A stretch of DNA of 64,000 nucleotides from Heterodontus francisci. Lineage: Eukaryota. Position numbers and translations under genes: made by a program. Shown here piece by piece: positions 1-54,699 of this stretch; the stretch's first letter is position 1, and each line of letters opens with the position of its first letter. Under the pieces are notes generated by a model. It was given only the letters and a program-made list of their open reading frames with translations, had not been told where the DNA came from and did not search any database. The stretch is from positions 92,632,164 through 92,696,163 of the forward strand of contig NC_090383.1 of NCBI RefSeq assembly GCF_036365525.1. Direction: 5' to 3'.

Positions 1-291
1 CCATGGCAGAAGGTGAAATTTGAATTCAATTAATAAAATTAAAATCTGGTCTAATGGTGACCATTGTTGATTGTTGTTAAAAACCCATCTGGTTCACTAA
101 TGCCTTTAGGGAAGAAAATCTGCTCTCCTTACTTGGTCTAGCTTACATGTGACTCCAGACCCATATCAATGTGGTTGACTCTTAAAATGCCCTCTGAACT
201 GGCCTAGCAAGCAACTCAATTGTCAAGGGCAATTAGGGATGGGCAACAAATGCTGGCCTTGCCAGTGATGCTGACATCCCATTTAAAAAAA
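1..291 (+). mobile_element. tRNA-headed SINE, 5' part outside window; 3' tail identical to the CR1/L2-group LINE tail
   Basis: Body matches 50998-51398 and the head at 50013-50293; ends CAAGGGCAATTAGGGATGGGCAACAAATGCTGGCC..A-run like LINE ends at ~20650, ~49280, ~53210. Confidence 0.85.
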
Positions 292-429
292 TTATGAGGT
301 TATTTTTAGAGCTGGCCAATTGCCATTCGAAAGTTTGCAGGAAATTTAAAATAGCATCTGTAGAATGTTTCTGGACAGATAAATTTCATGCTAAATCCAT
401 GATTTAAGTACAGAATCCAGGTTTACAGA

Positions 430-770
430 GATATTAAAACACTAGTGCAGCACTGAGGATGTACTGTATTGTTTGAGATGCTGTCTTTCGGATGAAATCC
501 TGAACAAAGACCCTGTCTGCCTTTCAATTGGACTTTACAGAGCCCCTGTTACTATTAAAGTAGAGAGCTCTCCTAGTGTCCTGGCCAACATTCATCTCTC
601 AACCAAAGATGCACTAACTGGTAATTTATTCTGTGACTTGTCAGATTGTCCTGGGTGCCAAATGGCAGCAGTATCAGCCTACTTAACAAGAATCACTGCA
701 TTGCTAAGTTATTTATTGTTTATCAAGCATTTTGAGTGGCTTGTGCAAGAAATGATAAAATATGAAGGTG
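430..770 (+). mobile_element. Degraded Deu-domain SINE (SacSINE1/AmnSINE1-like)
   Basis: GTGTCCTGGCCAACATT..CTCAACC and CAAATGGC.GC motifs align by eye with 13205-13605. Confidence 0.65.
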
Positions 771-1189
771 TTTACATATTCCGCAAACATTACTATTCTT
801 ATATCAGTGGAACAAACACACACAACAAACCAAGCATCACTGTTTCATCTACTTGAAAGGGGATTCAGAACTCTTAAGTTTCTCAGTGCTATATAAAGCA
901 GTCGTATGTTCAAAAGCACTCCATAATGCAAAAAGAAAGTGCTAATTTCTGCTACTGACTCATGCAGAATATGATAATCACCTGGCAACAAAGACAACTG
1001 CCAAGCAACAGCAACTGCTGCAGCTAAAGCACTGCGTAATTTGCAGCCTCAGGGAAAAAAAGATTTGAAGCCAAATGTCACTATATCAGGTGCAACACTG
1101 ATTTTTTTTTTGGAAGGTGATCAGCTCACTGTGCTGCACTAACACAAGTGCAGGCAACTTTATTTAGTATCATTATCCTTTTTTCAGTC

Positions 1190-1550
1190 TTGCCCCTTTA
1201 TCTCTATTACCTTCTCCAGCTCAACAACCCTCCAAGACCGCTGCATTCCTCTTACTCTGGCCTCCTAGGCATCCGCAAATCTCCTTGCTCCACAATTGGC
1301 AGCCAGGCTTTCAGTCGACCTAAGCTCTCAAAACCACTCCTTAGACCTTTCCGCCTCTCCAACTCTGTCTTGTGCCTTAAGACCCTCCTTGAAACCTATC
1401 TTTCTGATCAAACTTTTAGTCACCAACCGCACCCTCTCCACCCCTCCCTCCCCCGCCTCACTCCCCAATGTTTCGATGTCAATCTTTGCCTGATAATGCT
1501 TCCTTGGGATGTTTTCCGATGTAAAAGGCACTATATAAATCTACGTTGTA
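1190..1550 (+). mobile_element. L2 LINE 3' fragment
   Basis: L2-like C-terminus (KTLLETYL) and tail CTTGGGATGTTT..AAAGGCACTATATAAAT; similar to 56660-57240. Confidence 0.65.
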
Positions 1551-1597
1551 AACACAGGCTAACCAAATAACACCCAATGCTTGAACACTGCTCCCAT

Positions 1598-1927
1598 TAA
1601 AGGCCTGCTTGGGTCTGCAAATGAAACCCGACCCAAGCCCAGCAGAACCACATCCGACCCGAGCCCAACCCGGCCAGAGTCCTTTGATTTTTTTCCCACG
1701 CCCGACCAGACCTAACCAACCACTGGAATAAAGTTGATTATATTAAATAGGTTGTGCTCTACCTTGGATGGAATCGCTCACTACAGACTCACGCGGAGTG
1801 TTTCCCGCATTGGCATCCTGGCTATCACTGTGTCCAACCCGGCCCGACCCGAGCCCGAATGCCGGACCCGGAAGAGCGACCCGACCCCGACACACGTCGT
1901 CGGGCCCGATCGGATAGCCATGCTCTA
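1598..1927. mobile_element. hAT-type MITE
   Basis: Perfect 8-bp TSD GCTCCCAT (1590-1597, 1928-1935); imperfect TIR TAAAGGCCTGC / TAGAGCATGGC; repeated CCCGACCCG subterminal motifs. Confidence 0.85.
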
Positions 1928-2624
1928 GCTCCCATGTCTTGCATCTCTATCACACTCCTGGTAAAAATACAAAAAAAGTTTATCACCTGATGGGTAACCA
2001 TTTTCTCCCCTCCAGCCTCCACCCACCTCACCTTCTCCTTCCTTGTGCGGATACCTAGGAGGCCAGAGTAGGAGGAATGCAGAGGTCTTGGAGAGTTGTC
2101 GAGCTGAAGAAGGTGATAGAGATAAAGGGGCAAGACTAAAAAAAAGGATAATGTAACTAAATAAAGTTGCCTGCAGTTGTATTAGTGCAGCACAGTGAGC
2201 TGATCATCTACAAAAAGAAAATCACCTGACATAGTGACATTTGGCTTCAAACCTTTTTTTCCAGAGGCTGCAAATTATGCAGTGCTTTAGCTGCAGCACT
2301 TGCTGTTGCCTGGCAGTTGTTTTTAATTGCCACCTATAATGATCCTTTAAAGTTTCCTCTTGTTTTTTGTTTTCACCATCTGACTCGGTTTCTTCTGCCT
2401 GTATCTTCAGTGTTGAGATCAACGTTTCTTTCCTAGTCTTTCAAAACAGTGAAAACCCTCTCCTCTCTGCCTTTCCATCTTTCCACAGGCATTAAAACAC
2501 AAAATTGCCATTAGAAAACCACTAATCATCTCATTTACCTACTTTATTCCTTTCGACTTTGGTGGTGTCCTGCACTATTTTGTTTCTTAGTTTAAAAAAA
2601 CTCCTAGTCCACATTCATTGAGAT

Positions 2625-2835
2625 CAAGAAACACGCCATTTGTCCCAGCTGGACTGTGCCGACATTAATACTCCACACAAGCCTCCTGCCAACCTATCAG
2701 CATATCCTTCTATTCCTTCCTCCCTCATGTACTTATCTAGCTTCCCCTTAAAGGCATTTATGCTATTCACCTCCATGATGGTAGCGAGCTCCATATTCTA
2801 TCCACTTTCTTGGTAACAAAGTTCTCCTGAATTCC
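2625..2835 (-). mobile_element. Old CR1 3' fragment
   Basis: Reverse complement resembles CR1 ORF2 end and 3' UTR (TTTAAGGGGAAGCTAGATAAGTACATGAGG). Confidence 0.55.
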
Positions 2836-3852
2836 GTTTCTCAAAATGGAGACTTTTGACCAGTGGTGTTCCACAGGGATCCGTGCTGGGACCACTGTTG
2901 TTTGTGATATACATAAATGATTTGGAGGAAAGTATAGGTGGTCTGATTAGCAAGTTTGCAGACGACACTAAGATTGGTGGAGTAGCAGATAGTGAAGGGG
3001 ACTGTCAGAGAATACAGCAGAATATAAATAGATTGGAGAGTTGGGCAGAAAAATGGCAGATGGAGTTCAATCAGGGCAAATGCGAGGTGATGCATTTTGG
3101 AAGATCCAATTCAAGAGTGAACTATACAATAAATGGAAAAGTCCTGGGGAAAATTGATGTACAGAGAGATTTGGGTGTTCAGGTCCATTGTTCCCTGAAG
3201 GTTGCAACGCAGGTCAATAGAGTGGTCAAGAAGGCATACGGCATGCTTTCCTTCATAGGACGGGGTATTGAGTACAAGGGTTTGCAGGTCATGTTACAGT
3301 TGTATAAGACTTTGGTTCGGCCACATTTGGAATACTGCGTGCAGTTCTGGTCGCCACATTACCAAAAGGATGTAGATGCTTTGGAGAGGGTGCAGAGGAG
3401 GTTCACCAGGATGTTGCCTGGTATGGAGGGCGCTAGCTATGAAGAGAGGTTGAGTAGATTAGGATTATTTTCATTAGAAAGACGGAGGTTGAGGGGGGAC
3501 CTGATTGAGGTGTACAAAATCATGAGAGGTATAGACAGGGTGGATAGCAAGAAGCTTTTTCCCCAGAGTGGGGGATTCAATTACTAGGGGTCACGAGTTC
3601 AAAGTGAGAGGGGAAAAGTTTAGGGGGGATATGCGTGGAAAGTTCTTTACGCAGAGGGTGGTGGGTGCCTGGAACGCGGGCACGATAGCGTCTTTTAAGA
3701 TGTATCTAGGCAGATACATGAATGGGCAGGAAGCAAAGAGATACAGACCCTTAGAAAATAGGCGACATGTTTAGATAGAGGATCTGGATCGGCGCAGGCT
3801 TGGAGGGCTGAAGGGCCTGTTCCTGTGCTGTAATTTTCTTTGTTCTTTGTTC
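2836..3852 (+). mobile_element. 5'-truncated CR1 (HER1-like) LINE, RT C-terminal half
   Basis: ORF 2856-3587 has GVPQGSVLGP, FADDTK, LVRPHLEYCVQFWSP; frameshift to 3568-3774; tail GGGCTGAAGGGCCTGTTCCTGTGCTG plus TTCTTTG repeats. Confidence 0.95.
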
Positions 3853-3907
3853 CATTATTGGACTTTGTTCGCAAGAATATTGCTAAGGTTTTAACTACCG
3901 TCACATA

Positions 3908-4649
3908 GGCCTGGATTTTAACCTGGAGGTAGGTTCTGTGCAAGGATGCTATCATGAGGTTGGGACGCCCAGAAGAATTTAACTGCAGGGCTGCTGTCGG
4001 GTTCCCACTCACAGGCAGCTTGACTGATAGGCTGGAGGCCACTCATACATGAAACTACTTCAAAGGGCCAAAACCTACAAGGGCAGGTAGATGTACTGGG
4101 GGAGTGAGAGATCGTCAGGGGAGGGGTGGTCATGTTGCAAGGATGGAGGGGCTCTGTATCGTGGGGGCAGGACAGGGAGGTATTCCATGGTGGTCCAGGG
4201 ATCATGATTGCGGGGAGGGGGGCATGGATAGTCCAAAGGTTGTTGAAGGTCAATAGTGATCAGAGAAATCATCGGAGTGAATTTGCTGAGTAGGTTGTTG
4301 GACCTGGAGGAAACACTCTTGCACTTCCTGCCCACAAGCAGTGCTGCAAAGGCACTTACTTCATGGATTTAGCCCCTCTCTTCCCTCTTTAAGCTTCTTG
4401 GTTTCCTGTGGCCTAGGAAACCCGACTGCCTGTGGTTAGCAATAGAATGTTAAAATGAAGGCACAGAGCCTGATTATAATATTTCAATCACAAAACTGCT
4501 TCCTATGACAGGATTACTTGCCCGCCTCTGTCCATGCGAACCGCAAGTGGCCGGGTTTGAGTCTGGTTCATATCCTGTTCAGGAGTGTTTGCATTTTAAC
4601 TTCTGACACGACCACAACCCACCCGTTTTTGGGAGTTAAAATTCAGCCC
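3908..4649. mobile_element. PIF/Harbinger-type MITE
   Basis: TIR GGCCTGGATTTTAAC / GTTAAAATTCAGCCC; 3-bp TSD ATA. Confidence 0.75.
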
Positions 4650-5016
4650 ATAAAATCCAGATAGCAAATGTTAAGTCAGTGATACAGTTGTAATGCAAAC
4701 CTGTGTTGAACTGCCTATACTTATTTCATTTAGGTCACTTGTAACCATTAGAGTGTGGAGACTTCATCCCATCAATCAACCCTGTATTCAAACTGAGATT
4801 CTAGAAGTCCAAGCACAGTATTTTAATGCACTGTACTTTACTTTCCAAATAATGAATAAAATGTTTGCCCAACAATTCTTCAATTGTCTCTTTAAAAGGA
4901 AGAGGTAAAAATAGATGCACATACTGTGTAGTCTTTCCATTGGACCTGGTCTGATGCTCAGACCATTAGATTAAACTACAGTAACCAAAAAGAAGAATCT
5001 TGAATTGGTTGTTGTA

Positions 5017-5160
5017 CATAAGAACATAAGAAACAGGAGGAGTAGGCCATTCGGCCCCTCAAGCCATTCAATAAGATCATGGCTGATCTGCCCCAGACCT
5101 CAACTCCTCTTTCGTGCCAGCTCCTCATAGCCCTCAACTCCCCGATATTTCAAAAATCTA
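5017..5160 (-). mobile_element. CR1 3' tail fragment
   Basis: AAGAACATAAGAA microsatellite tail followed by GTAGGCCATTCGGCCCCTC. Confidence 0.75.
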
Positions 5161-7879
5161 CTGTAGTTAAACATTGCCATGTCATTTTATCCCTTGTGTT
5201 TGCCAATGTGTTGTTTGCCTGCTCGTTACATAACTGATTCCTTCAAAAGAAGAAAATCCACAATTCTATTTTAGAGATCAGTTGGGGATTTCCAAAACAC
5301 TCATCTCTTTGATAACTGTTCCCACTAAATATACTCTACAGATTGTATTCAATCATGATGAAAGCTCCCATTTCTGACCTGTCAATTGTGTGTACAAAAA
5401 AGTATTAAGGCCCACTAAAGTCTCTCCTGCTACAGATTAAGCTTTGCTCCATAAGACTTTAATGGCATGAAATAACTGCACAAATAGCACTATCATGAGT
5501 AACACTATCCCATTTTAATCTGATAGACATTAACCTCTTAAATACAAGTGATGAATGTGCTACAATCATTTGATAAGTGTCAGTTTGGCTCATTTGTGAG
5601 TCAGAAGGCTGTGGTTTCAAGCCTCACTCCAGGATTTGAGCATGTAATCTAGGCTGATACTTCAGTGCAATATTGAGAGTGCTTCATTGTCAAAGATGCC
5701 GGCTTTCAGTTAATTCTGTTCCAAAACGATTAACAGGAAGGGCAGCTGAGTGAGGGATAGAGCAGTTTGCAAAAGAGCTTTCATTGGTACTGCTTTGTGA
5801 TTGAAAAAGAATGCACTTCCAATGGATAGTGCTGGTCCTGCCCTGTTACCATGTTCCCCTTCCCTCCACCCACACCCCTACTGTGGAAAATTCAAAATAA
5901 TAAAATGGTTCACCTAGTTTCCATCATTTCCTGGATTGGGTGCAGGCAAATATACAGAGTGACTAGTAGGGTGTAGGTTCCACCATCATTAATCTGCAAT
6001 GGCCTCACAAGCATTTCTGCACAACACAAGCACAGCCTGCCCCATGGTGAGCTGCAGTATGTCCAATTGCTTGCCAGCCCAGTACTTCTGAGTGTCTTTT
6101 CCTGCACTGTGTTCCTTGTGCTATTCCTTGCATAGATGGCATGGATGAGTCATTGCATTTGCAATACGGATATTTACTTACAATGATGAGGCACTCTTTT
6201 CAGTAGCCTGCTTAAGAATTCCATAGTTTGGTAGATGGATTCAAATGACAAATAGGCCTGTGACACAAGACTACTATAACCACCAGGGTAGCAATCACAG
6301 GCACTACTTCCTGGAAATACATACGTAACAACAGCATAGTTCAGTGTATGATTAAACTGGTAAGTTCACCTAATCAAATCTTTTGTCTTATTTTCAATCG
6401 TTTCACATCAACGTCACCCTTTCTTGATTAATACTTCCTATTTTTCCCTTAAGATTTTCACTTAGATATGTCAAAATTTTAAGCACAAAAACACACATAA
6501 AAACTTTAGGAGTGAAAGTCAGGCAAGAAACTGCTGATGAACTTGTGTGTAGCCACAACGAGGAGGCATTTAATATGAAGAGGACGTAGCTGATGCCAAG
6601 TAAGGTCAAACATATTTTACTGTATGCTTACACTTGAAGTACAATGGAATCGAACAGTGAAAATGAAGAGTAATATTCATGGAAACCATTAACAGAGGAG
6701 GGACAATATTTTCACAACTATTCCTGATCCCTAAACCAATCCTTACTCACAAGTTGCATGTGTCTCATCACAGACATCCTCTTATAGTGGCAACATGCAT
6801 TGCACCTGAACTCATCTAGCTTTATCATTGCAGGTCCTAGAGGCAGGATCCACCTCACCACCGTCCCCTCCCCCAGAGGAACTGGATGAGAAGGAAGAAT
6901 CACCTCGACAGGAAGAGGGGAAGAGCAAGGAAGGTACCACATTAATCACTACCACCATTGCAGGCACTAGGTCAGAGACTAGCGCAACTTAGAGGCTAAG
7001 GTAGAACACGGATCCCCACACTCGCACGCACTGGCCACTAGTGGCCAGCAGCCATGTCATGTGGAAGGGACACCACAGGTGCCACCTTGCCAGGAAAAAG
7101 CATCTCACCTCCTCCTCCAGATCAAGGTGGGCCCACAGTGAAATCCCCATGAGCAACATCTTCCTTTCTCCTGGTGACTCCAATAAGGTCTCCAATAAGA
7201 TACAGTAGCACTGCACTGACTCTTTTTAGGTGAAATCTACAGAGAACTTCCAGAAAAAAACAGTTGATAGTGTTGGTGGAGTATTGACAAAGCGTCCCAG
7301 AAAGTCTCTCAATGTGTATCAAAAGTCCTCTTCAAACATAGTGTAGTCAGTCAATTTCAATCAGCAAGTGAACAGTGAAAGCTGAGCATGGCTTTAAGTA
7401 GTGCTCACAATCCTCACCAATGACTTCTTTAGCCTTGTTCAGCTAGTCGCTTTTAGGAGAGGTCATTAATAGCGGCACTAGGCAGCAAAATGGCTTGGAG
7501 CCTTTTTAATGAGCATTAGAGGCATAAGCATCCTTGGAGCGCCCTTTCTTAGGGCATGCTGAAACTCCTTTACCAAGATAGCATCTTGCACTAAAGGTCA
7601 GCTAATCAGGTGCTGCAGCTCAAGGCCCCATCTTGACCATCTCAGAGGCTCTTTAATGCCTAAACTACCGGCCCTGTAGTGAGGAAAAATAGCCCTACAA
7701 TATCAACCTTGATACAGAGACAGAGTTGCCAAGTAGATATCAGCCGTTCCTTACACAGAGTGAGTTGGAGGAAATTCATGACAAGCCAGCTTGGGCTGAT
7801 CTCATACAGCTCCCATCCTCTCATCACACTGAAAATTAGTACCTTGTCTGGTGGAGAACTATGTGTGCAAATATACAAT

Positions 7880-10471: not shown

Positions 10472-11388
10472 TCTTCTTTCTTCTTTCTTTTTCTTTTGGG
10501 CCTCCTTATCTCGAGAGACAATGGATACGCGCCTGGAGGTGGTCAGTGGTTTGTATGGAGTGACCTCTCCATGGCGCATGCCTGGGCAAATTTATGGAGG
10601 TTGAGAGTTGCCCAGTCGTCAAAACCCCCCTCTCGGCCTTTCTGGTGGGGTCCAAAGGAGTGCAGGACACGACGTTTGGCACCAGTATGGCTGCAGGAAC
10701 TGCCGGAAACATGCCAAAGGTGACACATGACCGCCTACGGGGTTCCGCTCCGGATTTTCTGTTAGGGTTTACTCCCTTAGCCTTGGTCTCTCCCGAGACG
10801 CCCACAAGGCAGTGGGGTTGTTGGGGCCCCTACACAGGTGTAGGATGGTGCCGGTGGGAGGAGGGGATGCAAGGGGGAGGGGTAGAGGGAGGGGTAGAGG
10901 GAGGGGGTGGGGGGGGGTGCAGGGGAAGGGGGTGCGGGGTGAAGATGGTGCGGGGGGGGGCGGGCTGGGACGGGGTTGTGAGGGGGTGAGCTGAGAGGGT
11001 GGAGCAGGGAAGGGGGGTAAAGGGGGGGGGAGGGGGGGTGGAATCTGGTGCAGGTAATAAGCCATTTCCTCAGTGCCCACCATCGACGTCCGGAAAGCTC
11101 ATCTACGTCCTTCGGGAGGTGAAGCATCATTTGGCAGACTTAGAGGTGGTTACATTTGCTAAGGGTTTTTTGCAGTGGTTTAAATAAAGGCATGCAGCAT
11201 TGCCGACAGTGCGCTGCAGATGCTCTCCGAGCCATCTCCCGCGGGCGCTTTGAAGTTGCGGCCGTGGGGGCCGTTCGTGGATGTTTTGGGTGTTCGGGGC
11301 ACCTTTTCACAGGACTTCTCTCGGGTCCCGCAGCTCCTTCTTCACCTCAATGGACTTACCGCATGCCGTGGCTGCAGACACTCTGGAC
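10472..11388 (-). mobile_element. Non-autonomous RTE derivative (unique head + C-rich tract + RTE 5' UTR + RTE 3' tail)
   Basis: TSD TGTATACAAAT (10461-10471, 11389-11399); ~10500-10555 matches RTE 3' end ~42265-42320; ~10556-10822 matches RTE 5' UTR ~45748-46015; GAA-type tail. Confidence 0.9.
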
Positions 11389-18070: not shown

Positions 18071-18590
18071 GCAGGGGGCTACATCCACTTTGACACAGAA
18101 GGAGCTGCAGCCTGTTGTTTCAGGTAAGAGAGACCGAAGGCAGCTCCAAATTGAGGCGCTCTTTCAGCACTTTCAAAACTTTGGATTTAAAAAATGGCCA
18201 CAGCTGCCAGACCACCATTATGGAGGGGAGAACCACTCCCAAGGAGCCTAAGGCCGCAGCTGGAGTTAGGTAGGCAGGGAGGGTCTCAACGCCTGCCTGG
18301 AGCACAGGCCTCTTGGTCTGCTGCCAGGAAGTCACCTCCAGGCAGTTGGCCTGTTCTGGACGCGGCAGGGGAGCCCACAGGATTACTGGAAAATTCCAGT
18401 CGCCCTCTGATAATTGGCCTTCAACTTACCTTAATTGGCTACCTGCCACTTGTGGATGGGTAGCCCATCCGCCCCCAATCCCCCCTCCAGGAAAATTGCC
18501 CAGCAGTAGGCGGGATGCTGCTGGCAAACTGGCATGTTGGCTGGTGGTGTGAAATTACGCACCTGCCAGCCTCTGTTCTCGCCCCCATTT

Positions 18591-20731
18591 CAGAGCTAAG
18601 CTATCCCATAACCAACAGATCAGATCTAAGCTCTGCAATCCTGCCACATCCAGTCGTGAATAGTGGTGGACAATTAAACAACTAACTGGAGGTGGCTCCA
18701 CAAATATCCCCATCCTCAATGATGGGGGAGCCCAGCACATCAGTGCGAAAGATAAGGCTGAAGCATTGCAACAATCTTCAGCTAGAAGTGCCGAGTTGAT
18801 GATCCATCTTGGCCTCCTCCTGAAGTCCCCAGCATCACAGATGTCAGTCTTCAGCCAATTCAATTTACTCCACGTGATATTAAGAAACGACTGAAGGCAA
18901 TGGATACTGCAAAGGCTATGGCCCCTGACAATATTCCGGCAATAGTATTGAAGACCTGTGCTCCAGAACTTGCCGTGCCGCTAGCCAAGCTGTTCCAGTA
19001 CAGCTACTACACTGGATCTGCTGAGCAATGTGGAAAATTGCCCAGGTATGTCCTGTACACAAAAAGCAGGACAAATCCAACCTGGTCAATTAGAATTAGA
19101 ATTTTTTTTTTTAGAATTAGAACATTACAGCGCAGTACAGGCCCTTCGGCCCTCGATGTTGCGCCGACCTATGAAACCATCTGACCTACACTATTCCATT
19201 TTCATCCATATGTCTGTCCAATGACCACCCCATCAGTCTATTCTCAATCATCAGTAAAGTGATGGAAGGTATCGTCGACAGTGCTATCAAGCGGCATTTG
19301 CTTAGCAATAACCTGCTCACTGATACTCAGTTTGGGTTCCGCCAGGGCCACTCAGCTCCTGACCTCATTACAGCCTTGGTTCAAAGATGGACAAAAGAGC
19401 CGAATTCCAGAAGTGAGGTGAAAGTGACTGCCCTTCACATCAAGGCAGCATTTGACTGAGTATGGCATCAAGGAGCCCTAGCAAAACTGGAGTCAATGGG
19501 AATCAGGGGGAAAACTCTCCACTGGTTGGAGTCATACCTAGCGCGAAGTGGCAGGTAGCCAATTAAGGTAAGTCGAAGGCCAATTAAGACCAATTATCAG
19601 AGGGCGACTGGAATTTTCCAGTAATCCTGTGGGCTCCCCTGCAGCGTCCAGAACAAGCCAACTGCCTGGAGGTGGCTTCCTGGCAGCAGTTGTGGTTGTT
19701 GGAGGTCAATCATCTCAGCTCCAGGACATCACTGCAGGAGTTCCTCAGGGTAGTGTCCTAGGCCCAATCATCTTCAGCTGCATCATCAATGACCTTCCTT
19801 CAATCATAAGGTCAGAAGTAGGGATGTTCGTTGATGATTGCACAACGTTCAGCACCATTCGTGACTCCTCAGATACTGAAGCAGTTTGTGTAGAAATGCA
19901 GAAAGACCTAGACAATATCCAGGCTTGGGCTGATGAGTGGTAAGTAACATTTGCGCCACACAAGTGACAGGCAATGACCATCTCAAACAAGAGAGAATCT
20001 AACCATCTCCCCTAAATGTTCAATGGCATGACGATCACTGAATCCCCCACTATCAACATCCTGGGGGTTACCTTGCACCAGAAACTGAACTGGAGTAGCC
20101 ATATAAATACTGTGGCTGCAAGAGGAGGTCAGAGGCTAGGAATCCTGCAGTGAGTAACTCACCTCCTGACTCCCCAAAGCCTGCCCACCATCTACAAGGC
20201 ACAAGTCAGGAGTGTGATGGAATACTCTCCACTTGCCTGGATGAGTGCAGCTCCAACAACATTCATGAAGCTCGACACCATCCAGGACAAAGCAGCCCGC
20301 TTGATTGGCACCCCATCCACAAACATTCACTCTCTCCACCACTGACGTACAGTGGCAACAGTACGTGGCATCTACAAGATGCACCGCAGCAATGCATCAA
20401 AGCTCCTTAGACAGTACCTTCCAAACCCAAGACCTCTACCACCTAGAAGGACAAGGGCAGCAAATGCATGGGATCACCACCACCTGCAAGCTCCCCTCCA
20501 AGCCACATACCATCCTGACTTGGAACTATATCGCCATTCCTTTACTGTTGCTGAGTCAAAATCCTGGAACTCCCTTCCTAACAGCACTGTGGGTGTACCT
20601 ACCCCACATGGACTGCAGCAGTTCAAGGCAGCAGCTCACCACCACCTTCTCAAGGGCAATTAGGGATGGGCAATAAATGCTGGCCTAGCCAGCGACGCCC
20701 ACATACATACCCATGAACGAATATAAAAAAA
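18591..20731 (+). mobile_element. 5'-truncated CR1/L2-group LINE (partner of the tRNA-headed SINE)
   Basis: Disrupted RT: QFGFRQGHS, AAFD, GVPQGSVLGP, FVDD; C-terminus SWNSLP..FKAAAHHHLLKGN; shared 3' tail. Confidence 0.9.
19088..19228 (-). mobile_element. CR1/HER1 3' tail nested in LINE
   Basis: (TTAGAA)n tail, then ACAGGCCCTTCGGCCC; interrupts LINE RT. Confidence 0.75.
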
Positions 20732-42307: not shown

Positions 42308-43786
42308 TCAGTGGTTTGTGAAGCAGCGCCTGGAGTGGCTTTCAAGGCCAATACTAGAGTGACAGACTCTTCCACAGGTGCTGCAGATAAAATTGGCTGT
42401 CAGGGCTGTTACACAGTTGGCTCTCCCCTTGTGCTTCTGTCTTTTTTCCTGCCAACAGCTATGTCTCTTCAACTCGTCACTCTTTAGCCCCGCCTTTATG
42501 GCTGTCCGCCAGCTCTGGCAATCACTGGCAACTGACTCCCACGACTTGTGGTCAATGTCACAGGACTTCACGTCGCGTTTGCAGACGTCTTTAAAGCAGA
42601 GACATGGACGGCCGATGGGTCTGACACCAGCGACGAGTTCGCTGTACAATGTGTCCTTGGGGATCCTGCCATCTTCCATGTGGCTCACATGGCCAAGCCA
42701 TTTCAAGCGCCGCTGGCTCAGCAGGGTGTATATGCTGGGGATGTTAGCTGCCTTAAGGACTTCTGCGTTGGAGATACGGTCCTGCCACCTGATGCCAAGT
42801 ATTCTCCGGAGGCAGCGAAGATGGAATGAATTGAGACGTCGCTCTTGGCTGACATATGTTGTCCAGGCCTCGCTGCTGTAGAGCAAGGTACTGAGGACAC
42901 AGGCTTGATACACTCGGACTTTTGTGTTCCGTGTCAGTGCGCCATTTTCCCACACTCTCTTGGCCAGTCTGGACATAGCAGTGGACGCCTTTCCCATGCG
43001 CTTGTTGATTTCTACATCGAGAGACAGGTTACTGGTGATAGGCGAGCCTAGGTAGGTGAACTCTTGAACTACTTCCAGAGCGTGGTCGCCAATATTGATG
43101 GATGGAGCATTTCTGACGTCCTGTCCCATGATGTTCGTTTTCTTGAGGCTGATGGTTAGGCCAAATTCGTTGCAGGCAGCCGCAATCCTGTCGATGAGTC
43201 TCTGCAGATACTGTTCAGTGTGAGATGTTAATGCAGCATCATCAGCAAAGAGGAGTTCCCTGATGAGGACCTTCCGTACTTTGGTCTTCGCTCTTAGACG
43301 GGCAAGGTTGAACAACCTGTCATCTGGTCTTGTGTGGAGGAAAATTCCTTCTTCTGAAGACTTGAACGCATGTGAGAGCAGCAGTGAAAAGAAGATCCCA
43401 AACAGTGTAGGTGCGATAACACAGTCCTGTCTCAGGCCACTCAGGATAGGAAAGGAGTCTGATGAGGCACCGCTATGCTGAATTGTGCCTTTCATATTGT
43501 CATGGAATGAGGTGATGATACTTAGTAGCTTTGGTGGACATCCAATCTTTGCTAATAGGCTGAAGAGACCACGTCTGCTGATAAAGTCAAAGGCTTTGGT
43601 GAGATCAATGAAAGCAATGTAGAGGGGCATCTGTTGTTCGCGGCATTTCTCCTGTAGCTGGCGAAGGGAGAACAGCAGGTCAATGGTGGAACTCTCTGCT
43701 CGAAAGCCACACTGTGCCTCAGGGTAGACACGCTCAGCCAGCTTCTGGAGCCTGTTTAAAACGACTCGAGCGAAGACTTTCCCCAC
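42308..43786 (-). pseudogene. RTE reverse transcriptase portion
   Basis: QCGFR, FIDLTKAFD, LLFADD, FTYLGS, LKWLGHV, CSTCGRVCHSSIGLESHSRRC. Confidence 0.92.
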
Positions 43787-44341
43787 TATGCTGAGCAGGG
43801 AGATTCCACGGTAGTTGTGGCAGTCACCACAGTCACCCTTCTTCTTTTAAGGGTGATGATATTGGCATCGCGCAGGTCCTGTGGTACTGCTCCCTCATCC
43901 CAGCACAGGCAAAGCAGTTCATGGCGTGCTGAGAGTATAGCAGGCTTGGCACTCTTGATTATTTCAGGGGTAATGCCGTCCTTCCCAGGGGCTTTTCCAC
44001 TGGCTAGAGAATAAATGGCATCACTGAGTTCCGATTTTGTTGGCTGTTCATCAAGCTCATCCATGCATTGAGGGCGGTCTCAGTGACAACATTTTCCCTG
44101 GAGTACAGTTCTAGGTAGTGCTCCACCCAGCGGTCCATTTGCTTGGGTTGGTCAGTGATCGTATCCCCTGACTTAGACTTGAGGAGGGCGATCTTCTTGA
44201 TGGTTGGCCCAAAAGCTCTCTTAATGCCATCATACATTCCTCTGATGTTTCTGGTGTTGGAGGCCAGCTGAATACAACTGCATAGGTGTTGCCAGTAGTC
44301 ATTTACACAGCGCCTAGCTGTTCTTTGTGCAGCGCTTCTGG

Positions 44342-45424: not shown

Positions 45425-46723
45425 AGTTCTGACGTTCCAGCTTGCAAAACGAAGGGCTGGTACCTTCTTTCCTTTTTCTTCATGCTGTTTGGTGCGATGT
45501 TACAGTCCACTTGTCGGGCAATCACCCTAAGCTCCAAGCACCCATTGAAGCAGGTGGACTGTGGCGGGACAGAACCTTACTGACTGGGGGCTGCCCGGTT
45601 TGAGGCGGGCGGTAGCTGTCCAGTGAGATGCGATGACCTCTCCCACAATAAAGGCAACCCGTGGCGCCCAATCTCTACGCCAATTGAGCTGGACTTATAA
45701 CCCGTAACAGCTGCCTTCCGTGTGGTTTTGGTCGCTGTGAGGTAACTATGGAGTGACCTCTCCATGGCGCATGCCTGGGTGGATGTATGGAGGTTGTGAG
45801 TTGCCCAAGCATCAAAACCCCCCTCTCAACCTTCCTAGTGGGGTCCAAAGGAATGCAGAGCATGACGTTTGGCACCGGTTTGGCTGCAGGAACTACCGGA
45901 AACATGCCAAAGGTGACACATGACAACCTTTGGGGTTCCGCTCCGGATTTTCTGATAGGGTTTACTCTTTTAGCCTTGGTATCTCCTGAGACACCCACAA
46001 AGCTGTGGGGTTGTTAGCTCCTATCCCTGAGCAAGGGCCCTAACAAGTAAGCTGTGATTTCATGGAGGGAGAGGGAAGGGAGGACGGGGTGCGGGGGATG
46101 CTAGGGGGAGGAAGTGGGGGAAGGGGTGCGAGGGGGAAGGGGATATGACAGGGAGGGGTGCGGGGGGAGGGGGTGGGGGAAGGGGGTGTGAGGGGGAGCT
46201 GGGAAGGGGGGGGGTGCAGAGGGGTTGGGGAGAAGGTGCAGGGGAAGGGGGTGCGAAGGGAAGATGGTGCGATGCGGAAGGTGTGCAGGGGAAGGGGGTG
46301 CGAGGGGGGAGCTGGGAAGGGGGTGCGAGGGGGAGCTTGGAAGGGGGTACGGGGGGTGAGCTGAGAAGGGGGTGCGAGGGGTATGGGGGTGCAGGGTGAG
46401 GGGAAGGCGGTTCTAGGGGGGAGGGTGAAGGGGGTGCGAGGGGGGAAGGGGGTACTGGGGGGAAGGTGCTGTGGGGGAGAAGGGGGGAGGCGTCCAGCAG
46501 GGGTCCTAACCCTGGCGAGCGGGCCAGCCCACAGCTGTACTAGTCAGTGTACTAACAGAGTGCAATATTAGTAGAGACATTGACCCTGATATTTAGCCTG
46601 GGCTTTGAAGACAGCAGGGCGAGGGGAGGATTTTCAGATAGAAAACCTGGAAGTATAGATTTCCTGCACAAATTTAACAGCAGGACAGTTTTAAAACTTT
46701 TGTCAGCAGGTTTCCCACACAAT

Positions 46724-49357: not shown

Positions 49358-50012
49358 TTGGATAACATGCTGAAACACGCTGACTATATTGACACAATAA
49401 AAAAACTATTTGGATGAGATACTAGAGGGTGCCTGGGGAACTCGACAAAGCAAAATTGGGTGTCATCAAGAGGAAAAGGGGAAAAAAACTGGTAAAAACA
49501 TAAGACAACAGGCAACATGGAGCTTCCTACCACAGAATGGACTGCTTCAGTGGGTCTCAGTCAAGAAGAAGCCAAACTAGAACAAGATTCATCTGCTTTA
49601 TACTACCATTTTTGTGTTGCATTTACACTGGCATTTACAGACATATATTTGGCACGAAAATCATAGTTTTATAAGCACGTAAGGCATATTAATAAGCAGA
49701 GCTGTTTACTCTCTTAACTCCTGATAACCTAAGTGCTTGATGCTGACAGTTGGTACTAAAAGCAGAAAAGTGTTCCACTCCCCAGCACAATCATCCCCCA
49801 CTTTGCTGAGCACAAAAATACATCAGAAAGTTACACTATTGGTTAAAGTGAATCTATTAGCATTGAAGAATGTAAAACAGGCATGCGAGGACACCCTATT
49901 CACTGTCTTTATAAAGCTTCAGTGCTCACAGTGTGAATGATTTAAACCTTGCTTCACAGGCCTTACTGATATCTGTGTCACCTGCCTCATTTTCTCTTTG
50001 TTTTTAATAGTA

Positions 50013-53000
50013 GGGAGGTGGTGGTATAGTGGTAATGTCACTGGACTAATAACCAGAGGCCTAGGCTAATGTTCTGGGGACATGGGTTTGAATCCCACCA
50101 TGGCAGATGGTGATATTTGAATTCAATTAATGAATCTGGAATTAAAAAAGCTAGTCTAATGGTGACCATGAAACCATTGTCGATTGTTGTCAGGAAACCA
50201 TCTCGTTCACGAATGCCCTTTAGGGAAAGAAATCTGCTGTCCTTACCTGGTCTGCATGTGACTCCTGATAATGGCCTAGCAAGCCACTCAGTTGGATCAA
50301 ACTGCTACAAATAATAAAAGGAATGAAATCGGACGGACCACCTGGCATCAACCTAGGCACTGGAAATGAGAACGGCAAACCCAGCCCTATCAACCCTGCA
50401 AAGTCCTCCTTACAAACATCTAGGGGGCTTGTGCCAAAATTGGGACAGCTGTACCACAGACTAGTCAAGCAACAGCCTGACAAAGTCATACTCATGGAAT
50501 CATCCCTGGGTATGTCCTGTTCCACCGGCACAGTGGTATACAGTCGGGAGGGAGTTATGCTAGGAGCCCTCAACATTGACTCCAGACCCCCATGAAGTCT
50601 CATGGCATCAGGTCAAACACGGGCAAGGAAACCTCCTACTGATTACCACTTACCGCTTCCCTCGGCTGATGAATCAGTGCTTCTCCATGTCGAATACCAC
50701 TGGAAGAGGTACTGAGGTTAGCAAGGCACAGAATGTACTCTGGGTGGGGGATCTCAAAGTCCAACACCAGGAGTGGCTCGGTAGTATCACTAAAGGACAT
50801 AGCTGCTCGACTGGGTGGGCGGCAGGTGGTGAGGGAAAAACCTAATTGATCTTGTCCTCACCAATCTACCTGTCTTAGATGCATCTGTCCATGACAGTAG
50901 TGGTAGGAGTGACCACCGCAAAGTTCTCGTGAAGATGAAGCCCCATCTTCACATTGAGGAAACCCACTGTGTTGTGTGGCACTACCACTGTGCTAAAGGG
51001 GAGGCGGTGGGGTAGTGGTAATGTCACTGGACTAGTAATCTAGATGCTAAGGCACTGGGAAAATGGGTTCGAATCCCACCACAGCAGATGGTGAAATTTG
51101 AATTCAATTAATAAATCTGAAATTTAAAAAAAAGCTAGTCTAATGGTGACCACAAAACCATTGTCGATTGTTGTAAAAACCCATCTGGTTCACTAATACC
51201 CTTTAGGGAAGGAAATCTGCTGTCCTTACATGGTCTGGTCTATATGTTACTCCAGACCCACAGCAATTTGGTTGACTCTTAACTGTCCTCGGAAGTGGCC
51301 TAGCATGCCACTTGGTTGTCAAGGGCAATTAGGGATAGACAACAAATGCTGGCCTTGCCAGCGACGCCCACATCCTATGAAAGAATAAAGAAAAAGAAAG
51401 ATTTCGAATAGACCTAGCAACTCAAAACTAGGCATCCATGAGGTGTAGTGGGCTAACAGCAGTATAGTATTCAACCTCATCCACAATCTGTAACCTCATG
51501 GCCTGGCATATGCCCCACTCGACCATTACCATCAATTCAGGGGACCAACCCTGGTTCAATACAGAGTACAGTAGGGCATGCTAGGAGCAGCGCCAAGCAT
51601 ACCTAAAAATGAGGTGCCAGCCTGGTGAAGCTGCAACACAGGACTAATTGCATGTCAAACAGTGTAAGCAGCATGCAATAGACAGAGCTAAGCAATCCCA
51701 AAACCAATGGATCAGGTCTAAGCTCTGCAGTCCTGCCACATCCAGTCGTGAATGTTGGTGGACAATAAAACAACTAACAGGAGGAGGAGGCTCCATAAAT
51801 ATCCCCATCCTCAAAGATGGGGGGGGGCAATGCACATCAGTGCAAAAGACAAGGCTGAAGCATTTTCATCCATCTTCAGCCAGAAGTGCCGAGTGGATAA
51901 TCCATCTCGGCCTCCTCCTGAGGTCCTCAGCATCACAGAGGCCTGTCTTCAGCAAATCTAATTCACTCCACGTGATATCAAGCAAAGTGATGGAAGGGGT
52001 CGCCGACAGTGTAATCAAGTGTCACTTGCTCAGTAATAACCTGCTCACTTACTCTCAGTTTGGGTTCCGCCAGGGCCACTCGGCTCCTGACCTCATTACA
52101 GCCTTTGTCCAAACATGGACAAAAGAGCTGAACTCCAGAGGTGAGGTGAGAGTGACTGCCCTTGACATCAAGACAACATTTGACTCAATATGGCATCAAG
52201 GAGCCCTAGCCAAATTGGAGTCAATGGGAATCAGGGGGAAAACTCTCCACTGGTTGGAGTTGTACCTAGCACAAAGGAAGATGGTGTGGTTGTTGGAGGT
52301 CGCATTTCAGTCGCAGGATGTCACTGCAGGCGTTCCTCAGAATAGTGTTCTAGGCCCAACCATATTCACCTGCTTCATTAATGACCTTCCCTCCATCATA
52401 AGGTCAGAAGTGGGGATGTTCATTGATGATTGCACAATGTTCAGTACCATTCGTGACTCCTCACTGAAGCAGCCCATGTCCAGATGCACAAGATCTGGAC
52501 AACATTCAGGCTTGGGCTGATAAGTGGCAAGTAAAATTTGTGCCACACAAGTGCTCGGCAATGATCATCTCAAACAAGAGAGAATCTAACCATCACCCCT
52601 TGATGTTCAATGGCATTATCATCGCTGAATCCCCCACTATCAACATCCTGGGGTTACCATTGTCTACAAACTGAACAGGAGCAGCCACATAAATGTTGTG
52701 GCTATCAGAGGCTGGGAATTCTGCGGCGTGTAACTCACCTCCTGACTCCCCAATGCCTGTCCACCATCTACAAGGCACAAGTCAGGAGTGTGATGGAATA
52801 CTCTCCACTTGCCTGGATGGGTGCAGCTCCAACAACACTCAAGAAGCTTGACACCATCCAGGATAAAGCAACCCACTTGACTGGCACCCCATCCACCACC
52901 TTCAATATTCACTCCCTTCACCAATGACGCACAGTGGCAGCAGTGTGTACCATCTACAAGATGCACTTCAGCATCTCAGCAAGGCTCCTTCGACAGCAAC

Positions 53001-53283
53001 CTCCAAACCCATGACATCTATCACCTAGAAGGTCAAGGGCAGCAGACATATGGGAACACCACCATCTGCAAGCTCCCCTCCAAGCCACACACCATCCTGA
53101 CTTGCAACTATATTGCCATTCCTTCATTGTCACTGGGTCAAAATCCTGGAGTTCCCTTCCTAACAGTACTGTGGGTGTATCTCAAGAGGCAGCTCACCAC
53201 CACCTTCTCAAGGGCAATTAGGGATGGGCAATAAATGCTGGCCTGGCCAGCGACGCCCACATCTCATGAACGAATAAAAAAAA
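50013..53283 (+). mobile_element. Near full-length decayed CR1/L2-group LINE with tRNA-SINE-like 5' head
   Basis: A/B-box head 50013-50293; endonuclease start (GLVPKLGQL..QPDKVILMES) ~50410; WVGD and DLVLTN motifs; RT in ORF 51648-52520; shared tail. Confidence 0.85.
50998..51398 (+). mobile_element. Complete tRNA-headed SINE nested inside its partner LINE
   Basis: A-box TGGGGTAGTGG, anticodon-like arm CTGGA-CTAGTAA-TCTAG, B-box GGTTCGAATCC, LINE tail, A-rich end; LINE-like sequence continues on both sides. Confidence 0.88.
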
Positions 53284-54415: not shown

Positions 54416-54699
54416 CAGTGAGCGTCGTGTGGGTAAAAGGTACTGATTAGCAAGAGGTTTCCTTCATCCTATTTGACCTGCAGACAAGAGATTTCATGGG
54501 AGTCAATGTTCAGGACTCACTGCTGATGGATCTGAAGTCTGGAATATTGAGATACATATATAATTGTGTGAGTACAACTCAGACAGGCTGTTGCTGGATT
54601 AGTCTGTGGGATAGTCCTCCCAACCTCAGGACCCAGATGTCCATGAGTACTTTGCAGAGTTGACTGGGTGATGTATTGTCAAGTGTCTGGGTTGTTGCT

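Follow-up and report, generated by a model that had tools for sequence, protein, structure and literature searches.

A tRNA-type head opens a Zenon LINE of Heterodontus francisci and is a candidate Pol III promoter for its coding RNA

Positions 50013-53283 (+ strand) of a 64,000-nucleotide stretch of Heterodontus francisci DNA, hereafter the window, are, as judged from the sequence, a decayed full-length copy of an elasmobranch Zenon LINE that begins with a tRNA-type head. This head is almost certainly the native 5' end of the family, and in four shark species and a ray the sequences compared here have the head, the body and the junction to the coding part as the start of the family. On balance, we favor the proposal that this decayed Zenon copy carries in its head a likely internal Pol III promoter, from which the whole 3.3-kb RNA would be made. 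The element is ordered as tRNA-like head, body, spacer, broken APE endonuclease, nested SINE, linker, RT, stop and tail, as follows:

50013..50105, + strand: tRNA-derived head (A box, anticodon-like arm, extra hairpin, B box), delimited by ARAGORN, the contig boundary and 7/7 published consensuses
50022-50032, + strand: A-box-like 11-mer; this copy carries a single C>T change
50084-50095, + strand: B-box-like 12-mer; this copy carries a single C>T change
50106..50294, + strand: conserved body, common to the local SINE forms (alignment; contig loose ends at 50254)
50295..50414, + strand: LINE-specific spacer with an A-rich tract, an out-of-frame AUG at 50323 and an Arg-rich leader in the endonuclease frame (contigs, Heterodontus P0001, consensuses)
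50400..50997, + strand: APE endonuclease region with frameshifts, stops and small deletions (motif order as in full-length relatives)
50998..51398, + strand: nested short (SINE) form, a later insertion into the coding region (85% identity with head and body)
51399..53221, + strand: linker, reverse transcriptase and C-terminal region (Pfam, alignment)
53222..53283, + strand: 3' tail common to the SINE forms, with a stem-loop (weak fold, z -1.5) and an A8 end

The boxes at 50022 and 50084 were assigned with what we take to be the box consensus, and the tRNA-like fold called by ARAGORN covers 50015-50105. A sequence-only reading of this DNA had stated that the element shares head and body with a local SINE family, has no SINE tail after ~50293 and runs about 110 bp into the endonuclease. 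This description held: positions 50013-50294 aligned with the four SINE copies of the window, the SINE tail is absent past the common motif that ends at 50294, and the endonuclease starts ~105-120 bases further on, with its first strand from ~50400 and a conserved Asn codon at 50415. The layout given in that reading (head, body, endonuclease, RT, tail) was likewise borne out, except that it missed the nested SINE inside the span. The nested form lies on the same strand as its host LINE, and a clear target duplication was not found for it. The body of this copy has a private 37-base deletion near 50270 and ends in a predicted hairpin with a 7-base loop (50273-50287). The endonuclease region gave a weak Pfam match to Exo_endo_phos_2 (E 0.079), and the RT (~51963-52514) matched RVT_1 (E 2e-21); a private deletion of ~225 bases lies in the RT linker, at 51981. 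The ORF stop codon is at 53219-53221, the tail contains AATAAA and poly(A), and A-rich 3' ends were present in all four LINE copies of the window. An imperfect candidate target-site duplication of ~7 bases is only suggestive.

The other three copies of this LINE in the window are 5'-truncated (18.6-20.7, 48.8-49.4 and 57.6-58.4 kb). The first, at 18591-20730, holds two foreign inserts, ~19086-19229 (with a T11 run) and ~19546-19689, the latter an inverted match to 18318-18451. Downstream of the element by 1.2 kb and on the opposite strand, 54432-54663 (-) gave a weak (70%) match to the same endonuclease region. Two further LINE fragments were seen: 42692-44079 (-), with its best match to the Zenon-like relative P0173 (27%), is possibly a second, older lineage, and 2682-3759 (+) is of vertebrate CR1 type and grouped with bird and turtle CR1 in the RT tree. 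G-rich tandem arrays at 46116-46492 and 10875-10956 lie within a duplicated segment (10554-11002 vs 45747-46210).

By its identity with named elasmobranch consensuses, its RT outside vertebrate CR1, its single APE-RT ORF and its poly(A), the element belongs to the known elasmobranch Zenon family. Zenon elements occur in elasmobranchs, coelacanth and hagfish, and all those surveyed have a poly(A) end and no ORF1 (Stuart et al. 2026, PMC13343379). No ORF1 fits in 50013-53283, where only ~105-120 bases separate the body from the endonuclease; the sequence-only reading treated this as unusual, but because the element is a Zenon and all surveyed Zenons lack ORF1, its absence is ordinary, and we rejected it as a novelty (PMC13343379). 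The unusual part is instead the tRNA-type head. Shark proteins 59-83% identical to the element came from Heptranchias, Heterodontus and whale shark, and the nearest full-length relatives, among them Branchiostoma and Loxostege proteins, were 33-37% identical; of these nearest relatives, P0128, P0131 and P0144 lie on contigs of 3.3-4.0 kb, which leaves a few hundred bases of leader. An RT phylogeny, which the sequence-only reading had proposed as a check on an element that it likened to CR1/L2-group LINEs, placed the element with invertebrate relatives and outside vertebrate CR1. In this tree (32 rows, 166 columns; rows picked by similarity, none of them labelled Zenon), the element fell on a long end branch (1.47) in a 13-row group with the Loxostege and Branchiostoma proteins, at a support (93/93) just under the bar, and bird and turtle CR1 stood apart (96/90, which reached the bar). 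Identity with HER1 or vertebrate CR1 was rejected on this placement, the RT lying outside the canonical vertebrate CR1 clade and ORF1 being absent. With respect to SINE2 elements, the tRNA-derived head with A and B boxes is present (with weak Rfam support), but the long form encodes endonuclease and RT, and only the short forms are short and non-coding.

Elasmobranch Zenons were not yet in any repeat repository (PMC13343379), and they make up 6.8% of the genome in great white, 4.4% in dogfish, 3.0% in sawfish and ~0.7% in stingray and skate (PMC13343379). The main text of that paper has the word 'tRNA' nowhere and 'SINE' once, in a reference, and does not discuss the head, short forms or a promoter; the literature that we searched (mostly non-subscription) contained no description of a tRNA head on a shark Zenon or of a Pol III-transcribed autonomous LINE. 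In chimaera, 0.018% of the DNA is Zenon-masked, ~10 to 600 times the listed Zenon-free vertebrates (PMC13343379, Table S4), and the head or body may have a relative in this genome. DNA patterns of the element had no matches in viral contigs or in metagenome contigs, protein-based locus searches found four distant LINEs (25-36% identity, without a tRNA call) and none in viral contigs, and the ESM Atlas returned RT clusters only. Pieces of the element are contained in the predicted proteins P0001, P0022, P0130 and P0137 (an RGL1-like protein of Heterodontus, a CBS-like protein of Scyliorhinus, and others), by mis-annotation or exonisation.

To place the 5' end, we compared the first 400 letters of ten published Zenon consensuses (PMC13343379, Supplementary Table 2). 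All seven elasmobranch consensuses began with this head, body, junction and spacer (largely by eye). They are 2886-3314 bases long and come from great white, whale shark, catshark, dogfish (three) and stingray, five species in all, and the same head was absent from the three hagfish and coelacanth consensuses. The exact junction motif was found in five of the seven and a variant in two, and exact window motifs gave 5, 1 and 1 matches in the consensus sequences. Contigs from 4 of 24 runs were also aligned to 49860-50990. Across 50013, their summed depth, which is not copy number, rose from 398 to 381,099, from 91 to 167,857, from 187 to 220,740 and from 187 to 5,469 in the four runs, a step of ~30- to 1800-fold. 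Before 50013, at least 378, 568, 426 and 43 contigs had loose ends with an agreement of 0.34-0.37, as many different insertion sites would give. Eleven of the 32 listed pieces, with all four runs represented, spanned from 50270-50285 to 50445-50482; no listed contig had 31 letters on both sides of the junction, and the head side gave at most 25, because the 37-base deletion of this copy lies just upstream. Among the 24 loose-end rows listed, none had another 5' end joined to the endonuclease. The junction thus recurs at many loci in the contigs of all four runs and in 7/7 consensuses and is not unique to this locus, and full-length members with an ORF1 and a different 5' end did not appear among the seven elasmobranch consensuses. 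Contigs and consensuses both uphold the earlier claim of a single-ORF autonomous LINE with a tRNA-derived head as its native 5' end.

Several features of the head suggest a Pol III promoter. In the first 400 letters of the headed consensuses, the A box was intact in 7/7 and the B-box core in 6/7, the sequence between them being variable (by eye), and the 5' ends lay 5-10 bases ahead of the A box, compared with 9 in this copy. Pol III terminates at runs of four or more T. We counted T-runs on the coding strand against a synonymous-codon shuffle that held protein and codon usage fixed, in window copies that are not independent of one another. This copy had 6 runs of three or more T compared with 16.2 expected (P = 0.001, 719 codons), and the 18-kb copy had 7 compared with 11.3 expected (P = 0.028), whereas none of five control LINEs was T-run-depleted under the codon shuffle (control L002 was T3-poor under a composition null, P = 0.005). 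Runs of A and G were not depleted, and C runs were mildly so (P = 0.026). For T4 runs, this copy had 1 against 2.9 expected (P = 0.15) and the 18-kb copy 0 against 2.4 (P = 0.055), neither significant alone, and the deficit was gone under a dinucleotide shuffle (P 0.22-0.93). In 5750 bases of the four window copies there were two T4+ runs, neither of them present in more than one copy (counted apart from the nested SINE and from the 18-kb copy's pair of foreign inserts, where three more runs lie), and ten control LINE stretches, most of them T-richer than the family, held 93 in 14,612 bases. T4+ runs were absent from the first 400 letters of the seven headed consensuses and present in all three other Zenons (by eye). 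The coding strand is poor in T-runs, a bias that fits Pol III and is no proof of it, and we consider Pol III the probable polymerase of the family's RNA. The hagfish element CR1-7_EBu had three T4 runs in the ~600 letters examined, unlike the shark family (supplement of PMC7245038). A bacterial promoter scan was empty, a method not applicable to this element.

In the endonuclease frame, no AUG occurs from the stop at 50277 up to the conserved Asn at 50415, and other copies have no common Met in the first part of the endonuclease domain, so a frameshift or a non-AUG start would be required. The AUG at 50323, after the A-rich tract, is kept in 6/7 consensuses and is one base out of the endonuclease frame. 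In this copy the frames are falsely joined by a private extra base at ~50422, which was left out in 98, 107, 102 and 27 contigs of the four runs; the 107-aa open frame at 50272-50595, which depends on that base, was rejected as the true N-terminus, as were the ORF lengths of Table S3 (PMC13343379) as a guide to the start site. Read in the endonuclease frame, the leader is rich in Arg, as is the Met-started leader of the relative P0128. When the 5' piece was used in protein searches, the 1 and 2 matches were all gene-caller fragments and uninformative on the start. In 6/7 consensuses the hairpin that closes the body carries an anticodon-like 7-base loop, and this loop could pair with an invariant 4-base motif ~13 bases downstream (7/7). 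The motif lies in the endonuclease frame in four of the six consensuses that can be read, whereas in two dogfish consensuses it is out of frame. Dicistrovirus-type IGR IRESs are defined by three pseudoknots with an anticodon-codon mimic before a non-AUG start; what the element offers for comparison is this predicted hairpin and its possible 4-base partner, and IGR-type IRESs in LINEs have been raised as a possibility (PMC3894237). None of the 18 predicted pairs showed a compensatory change, no Rfam IRES matched, and head, body and tail, when folded as single sequences, did no better than shuffles (z 0.44 to -1.9). A tRNA-codon mimic of the dicistrovirus kind is a lead only and seems improbable. 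The joint reading, in which the element would be transcribed by Pol III and also translated without cap or AUG, is tentative, and we regard it as somewhat doubtful.

A rather unlikely alternative accepts the native head but places in head or body an internal promoter at which Pol II transcribes the coding RNA, with the A and B boxes serving only the short forms or lending TFIIIC aid, and with translation from the conserved AUG by a -1 shift. LINEs are taken as Pol II-transcribed (PMC5786205), and several of our observations would suit this account at the expense of Pol III: an AUG after an A-rich tract in 6/7 consensuses fits a capped, scanned mRNA, the tail has AATAAA and poly(A) as in Pol II LINEs, and the T4 deficit is not significant alone and vanishes under the dinucleotide null. 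However, the account leaves unexplained both the avoidance of T-runs on the sense strand and the retention of A and B boxes in full-length families of sharks and ray, and by eye no conserved canonical slippery heptamer was seen in the spacer of the consensuses.

ARAGORN, at a lowered threshold, called Thr(agt) for two of three SINE heads and made no call for the third; Rfam gave no significant match in the window, head or body, its tRNA matches falling below significance (E 0.12 and 4.5). The anticodon-like loop CTAGTAA on which tRNA-Thr(AGT) had been proposed is present in the SINE copies, but the head of this LINE reads CTAATAA. A derivation of the head from tRNA-Thr(AGT) is plausible, and its likely origin is capture from an older SINE. 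The extra hairpin at 50056-50080 resembles a duplicate of the anticodon arm and is mostly absent from the 26.2 kb SINE and the stingray consensus (by eye). By analogy with R2, whose RNA is naturally uncapped (PMC12222951), the head could be a processing signal at which read-through host transcripts are cut at the 5' edge (RNase P-like), giving a defined uncapped end. The abrupt 5' boundary at tRNA position +1 would agree with this, as would two compensatory pair changes in the extra hairpin that set dogfish apart from the other sharks (by eye), which suggest that RNA structure of the head is under selection. We nevertheless find it improbable, as the acceptor stem pairs poorly in the published consensuses while the A and B boxes are intact (first 400 letters, by eye), and processing gives no reason for T-run avoidance.

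It is very improbable that the headed form is a dependent passenger, mobilised by an unseen partner with an ORF1 or another 5' end. Copies with an intact ORF2 are indeed few (e.g. 3/612, 1/1419 and 0/2313; PMC13343379, Table S3), and the absence of other 5' ends was observed among the listed loose-end rows, but the head is in 7/7 elasmobranch consensuses, Zenons lack ORF1 throughout, and endonuclease and RT coverage is 92-100% in 5/7 elasmobranch families (PMC13343379). That head and endonuclease came together here by chance or by a single template switch is refuted by the same junction in 7/7 consensuses of five species and in the contigs of 4/4 runs, even though SINEs do insert into this family, as the nested copy at 50998-51398 illustrates.

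The short forms can be read from the same layout. In the four SINE copies of the window, the body joins the tail at three different breakpoints: two copies have a direct join at a short repeat common to the 5' and 3' parts of the LINE, the 26-kb copy retains slightly more of the ORF end, and the copy at 21.3-21.7 kb retains ~20 bases of LINE-only spacer and ~45 of the ORF end. We infer that these 'SINEs' are repeated internal deletions of the headed LINE rather than an independent donor, and the separate local SINE family implied by the sequence-only reading gives way to this view. The lepidopteran Zenon repeatedly spawns short forms (Persaeus) by internal deletion at microhomologies (PMC6740152). 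Body motifs had no match in the Persaeus supplement (PMC6740152) and one irrelevant match in hagfish SINE supplements; line breaks in these supplements could hide matches.

Under the Pol III proposal, TFIIIC would bind the A and B boxes and Pol III would start at the first base of the head, so that the promoter would be carried into every full-length insertion. Selection would have removed T-runs that end transcription early, and the uncapped RNA would be translated from a non-standard start, for which the conserved structured body is a candidate helper. LINEs generally insert through target-primed reverse transcription that begins at the 3' tail. The short forms, which behave as SINEs because they retain promoter and tail, would then have come from internal deletions at short repeats. 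We know of no natural precedent for a 3.3-kb translated Pol III RNA.

By the usual division, LINEs are coding and transcribed by Pol II, and SINEs are non-coding and transcribed by Pol III. This split is blurred by a family that occupies up to ~7% of a shark genome and whose coding form has a Pol III-type head, and the family raises the questions of whether a natural multi-kilobase mRNA is made by Pol III and how an uncapped, AUG-less ORF is translated. It also offers a simple route of SINE birth, in which the middle of a tRNA-headed LINE is deleted, and a candidate origin for the conserved SINE body called enigmatic in PMC5786205. If the proposal is true, a protein-coding element with Pol III-made RNA would be unusual; should the RNA be a Pol II product, what remains of the finding is the unannotated 5' structure of a known family.

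Known systems share parts of this arrangement. R2 is co-transcribed with 28S rRNA and freed by an HDV-like ribozyme, and belongs to another clade with another endonuclease type. The likeness to it lies in a single-ORF non-LTR element with a naturally uncapped RNA (PMC12222951). The HE1 SINE and HER1 LINE (PMC3747384) occur in the same shark and ray hosts and pair a tRNA SINE with a CR1-group LINE through a common tail; HE1 is a V-SINE sharing only its tail with the LINE. In the RT tree the present element falls outside vertebrate CR1, and another LINE of the window falls inside. RTE-1_DAn and related elements (Repbase, per PMC5786205) are LINEs that contain tRNA-like sequence, but are of the RTE clade, and PMC5786205 names RTE-1_DAn only as a source of unwanted matches, without a position or promoter role. 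In the bipartite SINEs Bov-tA, CoeSINE4 and SINE2_Gav (PMC5786205), a tRNA head is likewise joined to LINE 5' and 3' parts, but there it sits on a non-coding deleted LINE of the RTE or Vingi clade, whereas the shark head is on the coding LINE itself. The elasmobranch Zenons (CarCar, RhiTyp, ScyCan and HypSab Zenon-1; SquAca Zenon-1/2/3; PMC13343379) are the same family, with matching first 400 bases, and are also ~3.3 kb long with a single APE-RT ORF, no ORF1 and a poly(A) tail, so that the element itself is no different. Lepidopteran Zenon and Persaeus (PMC6740152) resemble it as a Zenon-type LINE with an internally deleted partner; Persaeus, however, is without tRNA homology or a Pol III promoter, whereas the shark head belongs to the long and short forms alike.
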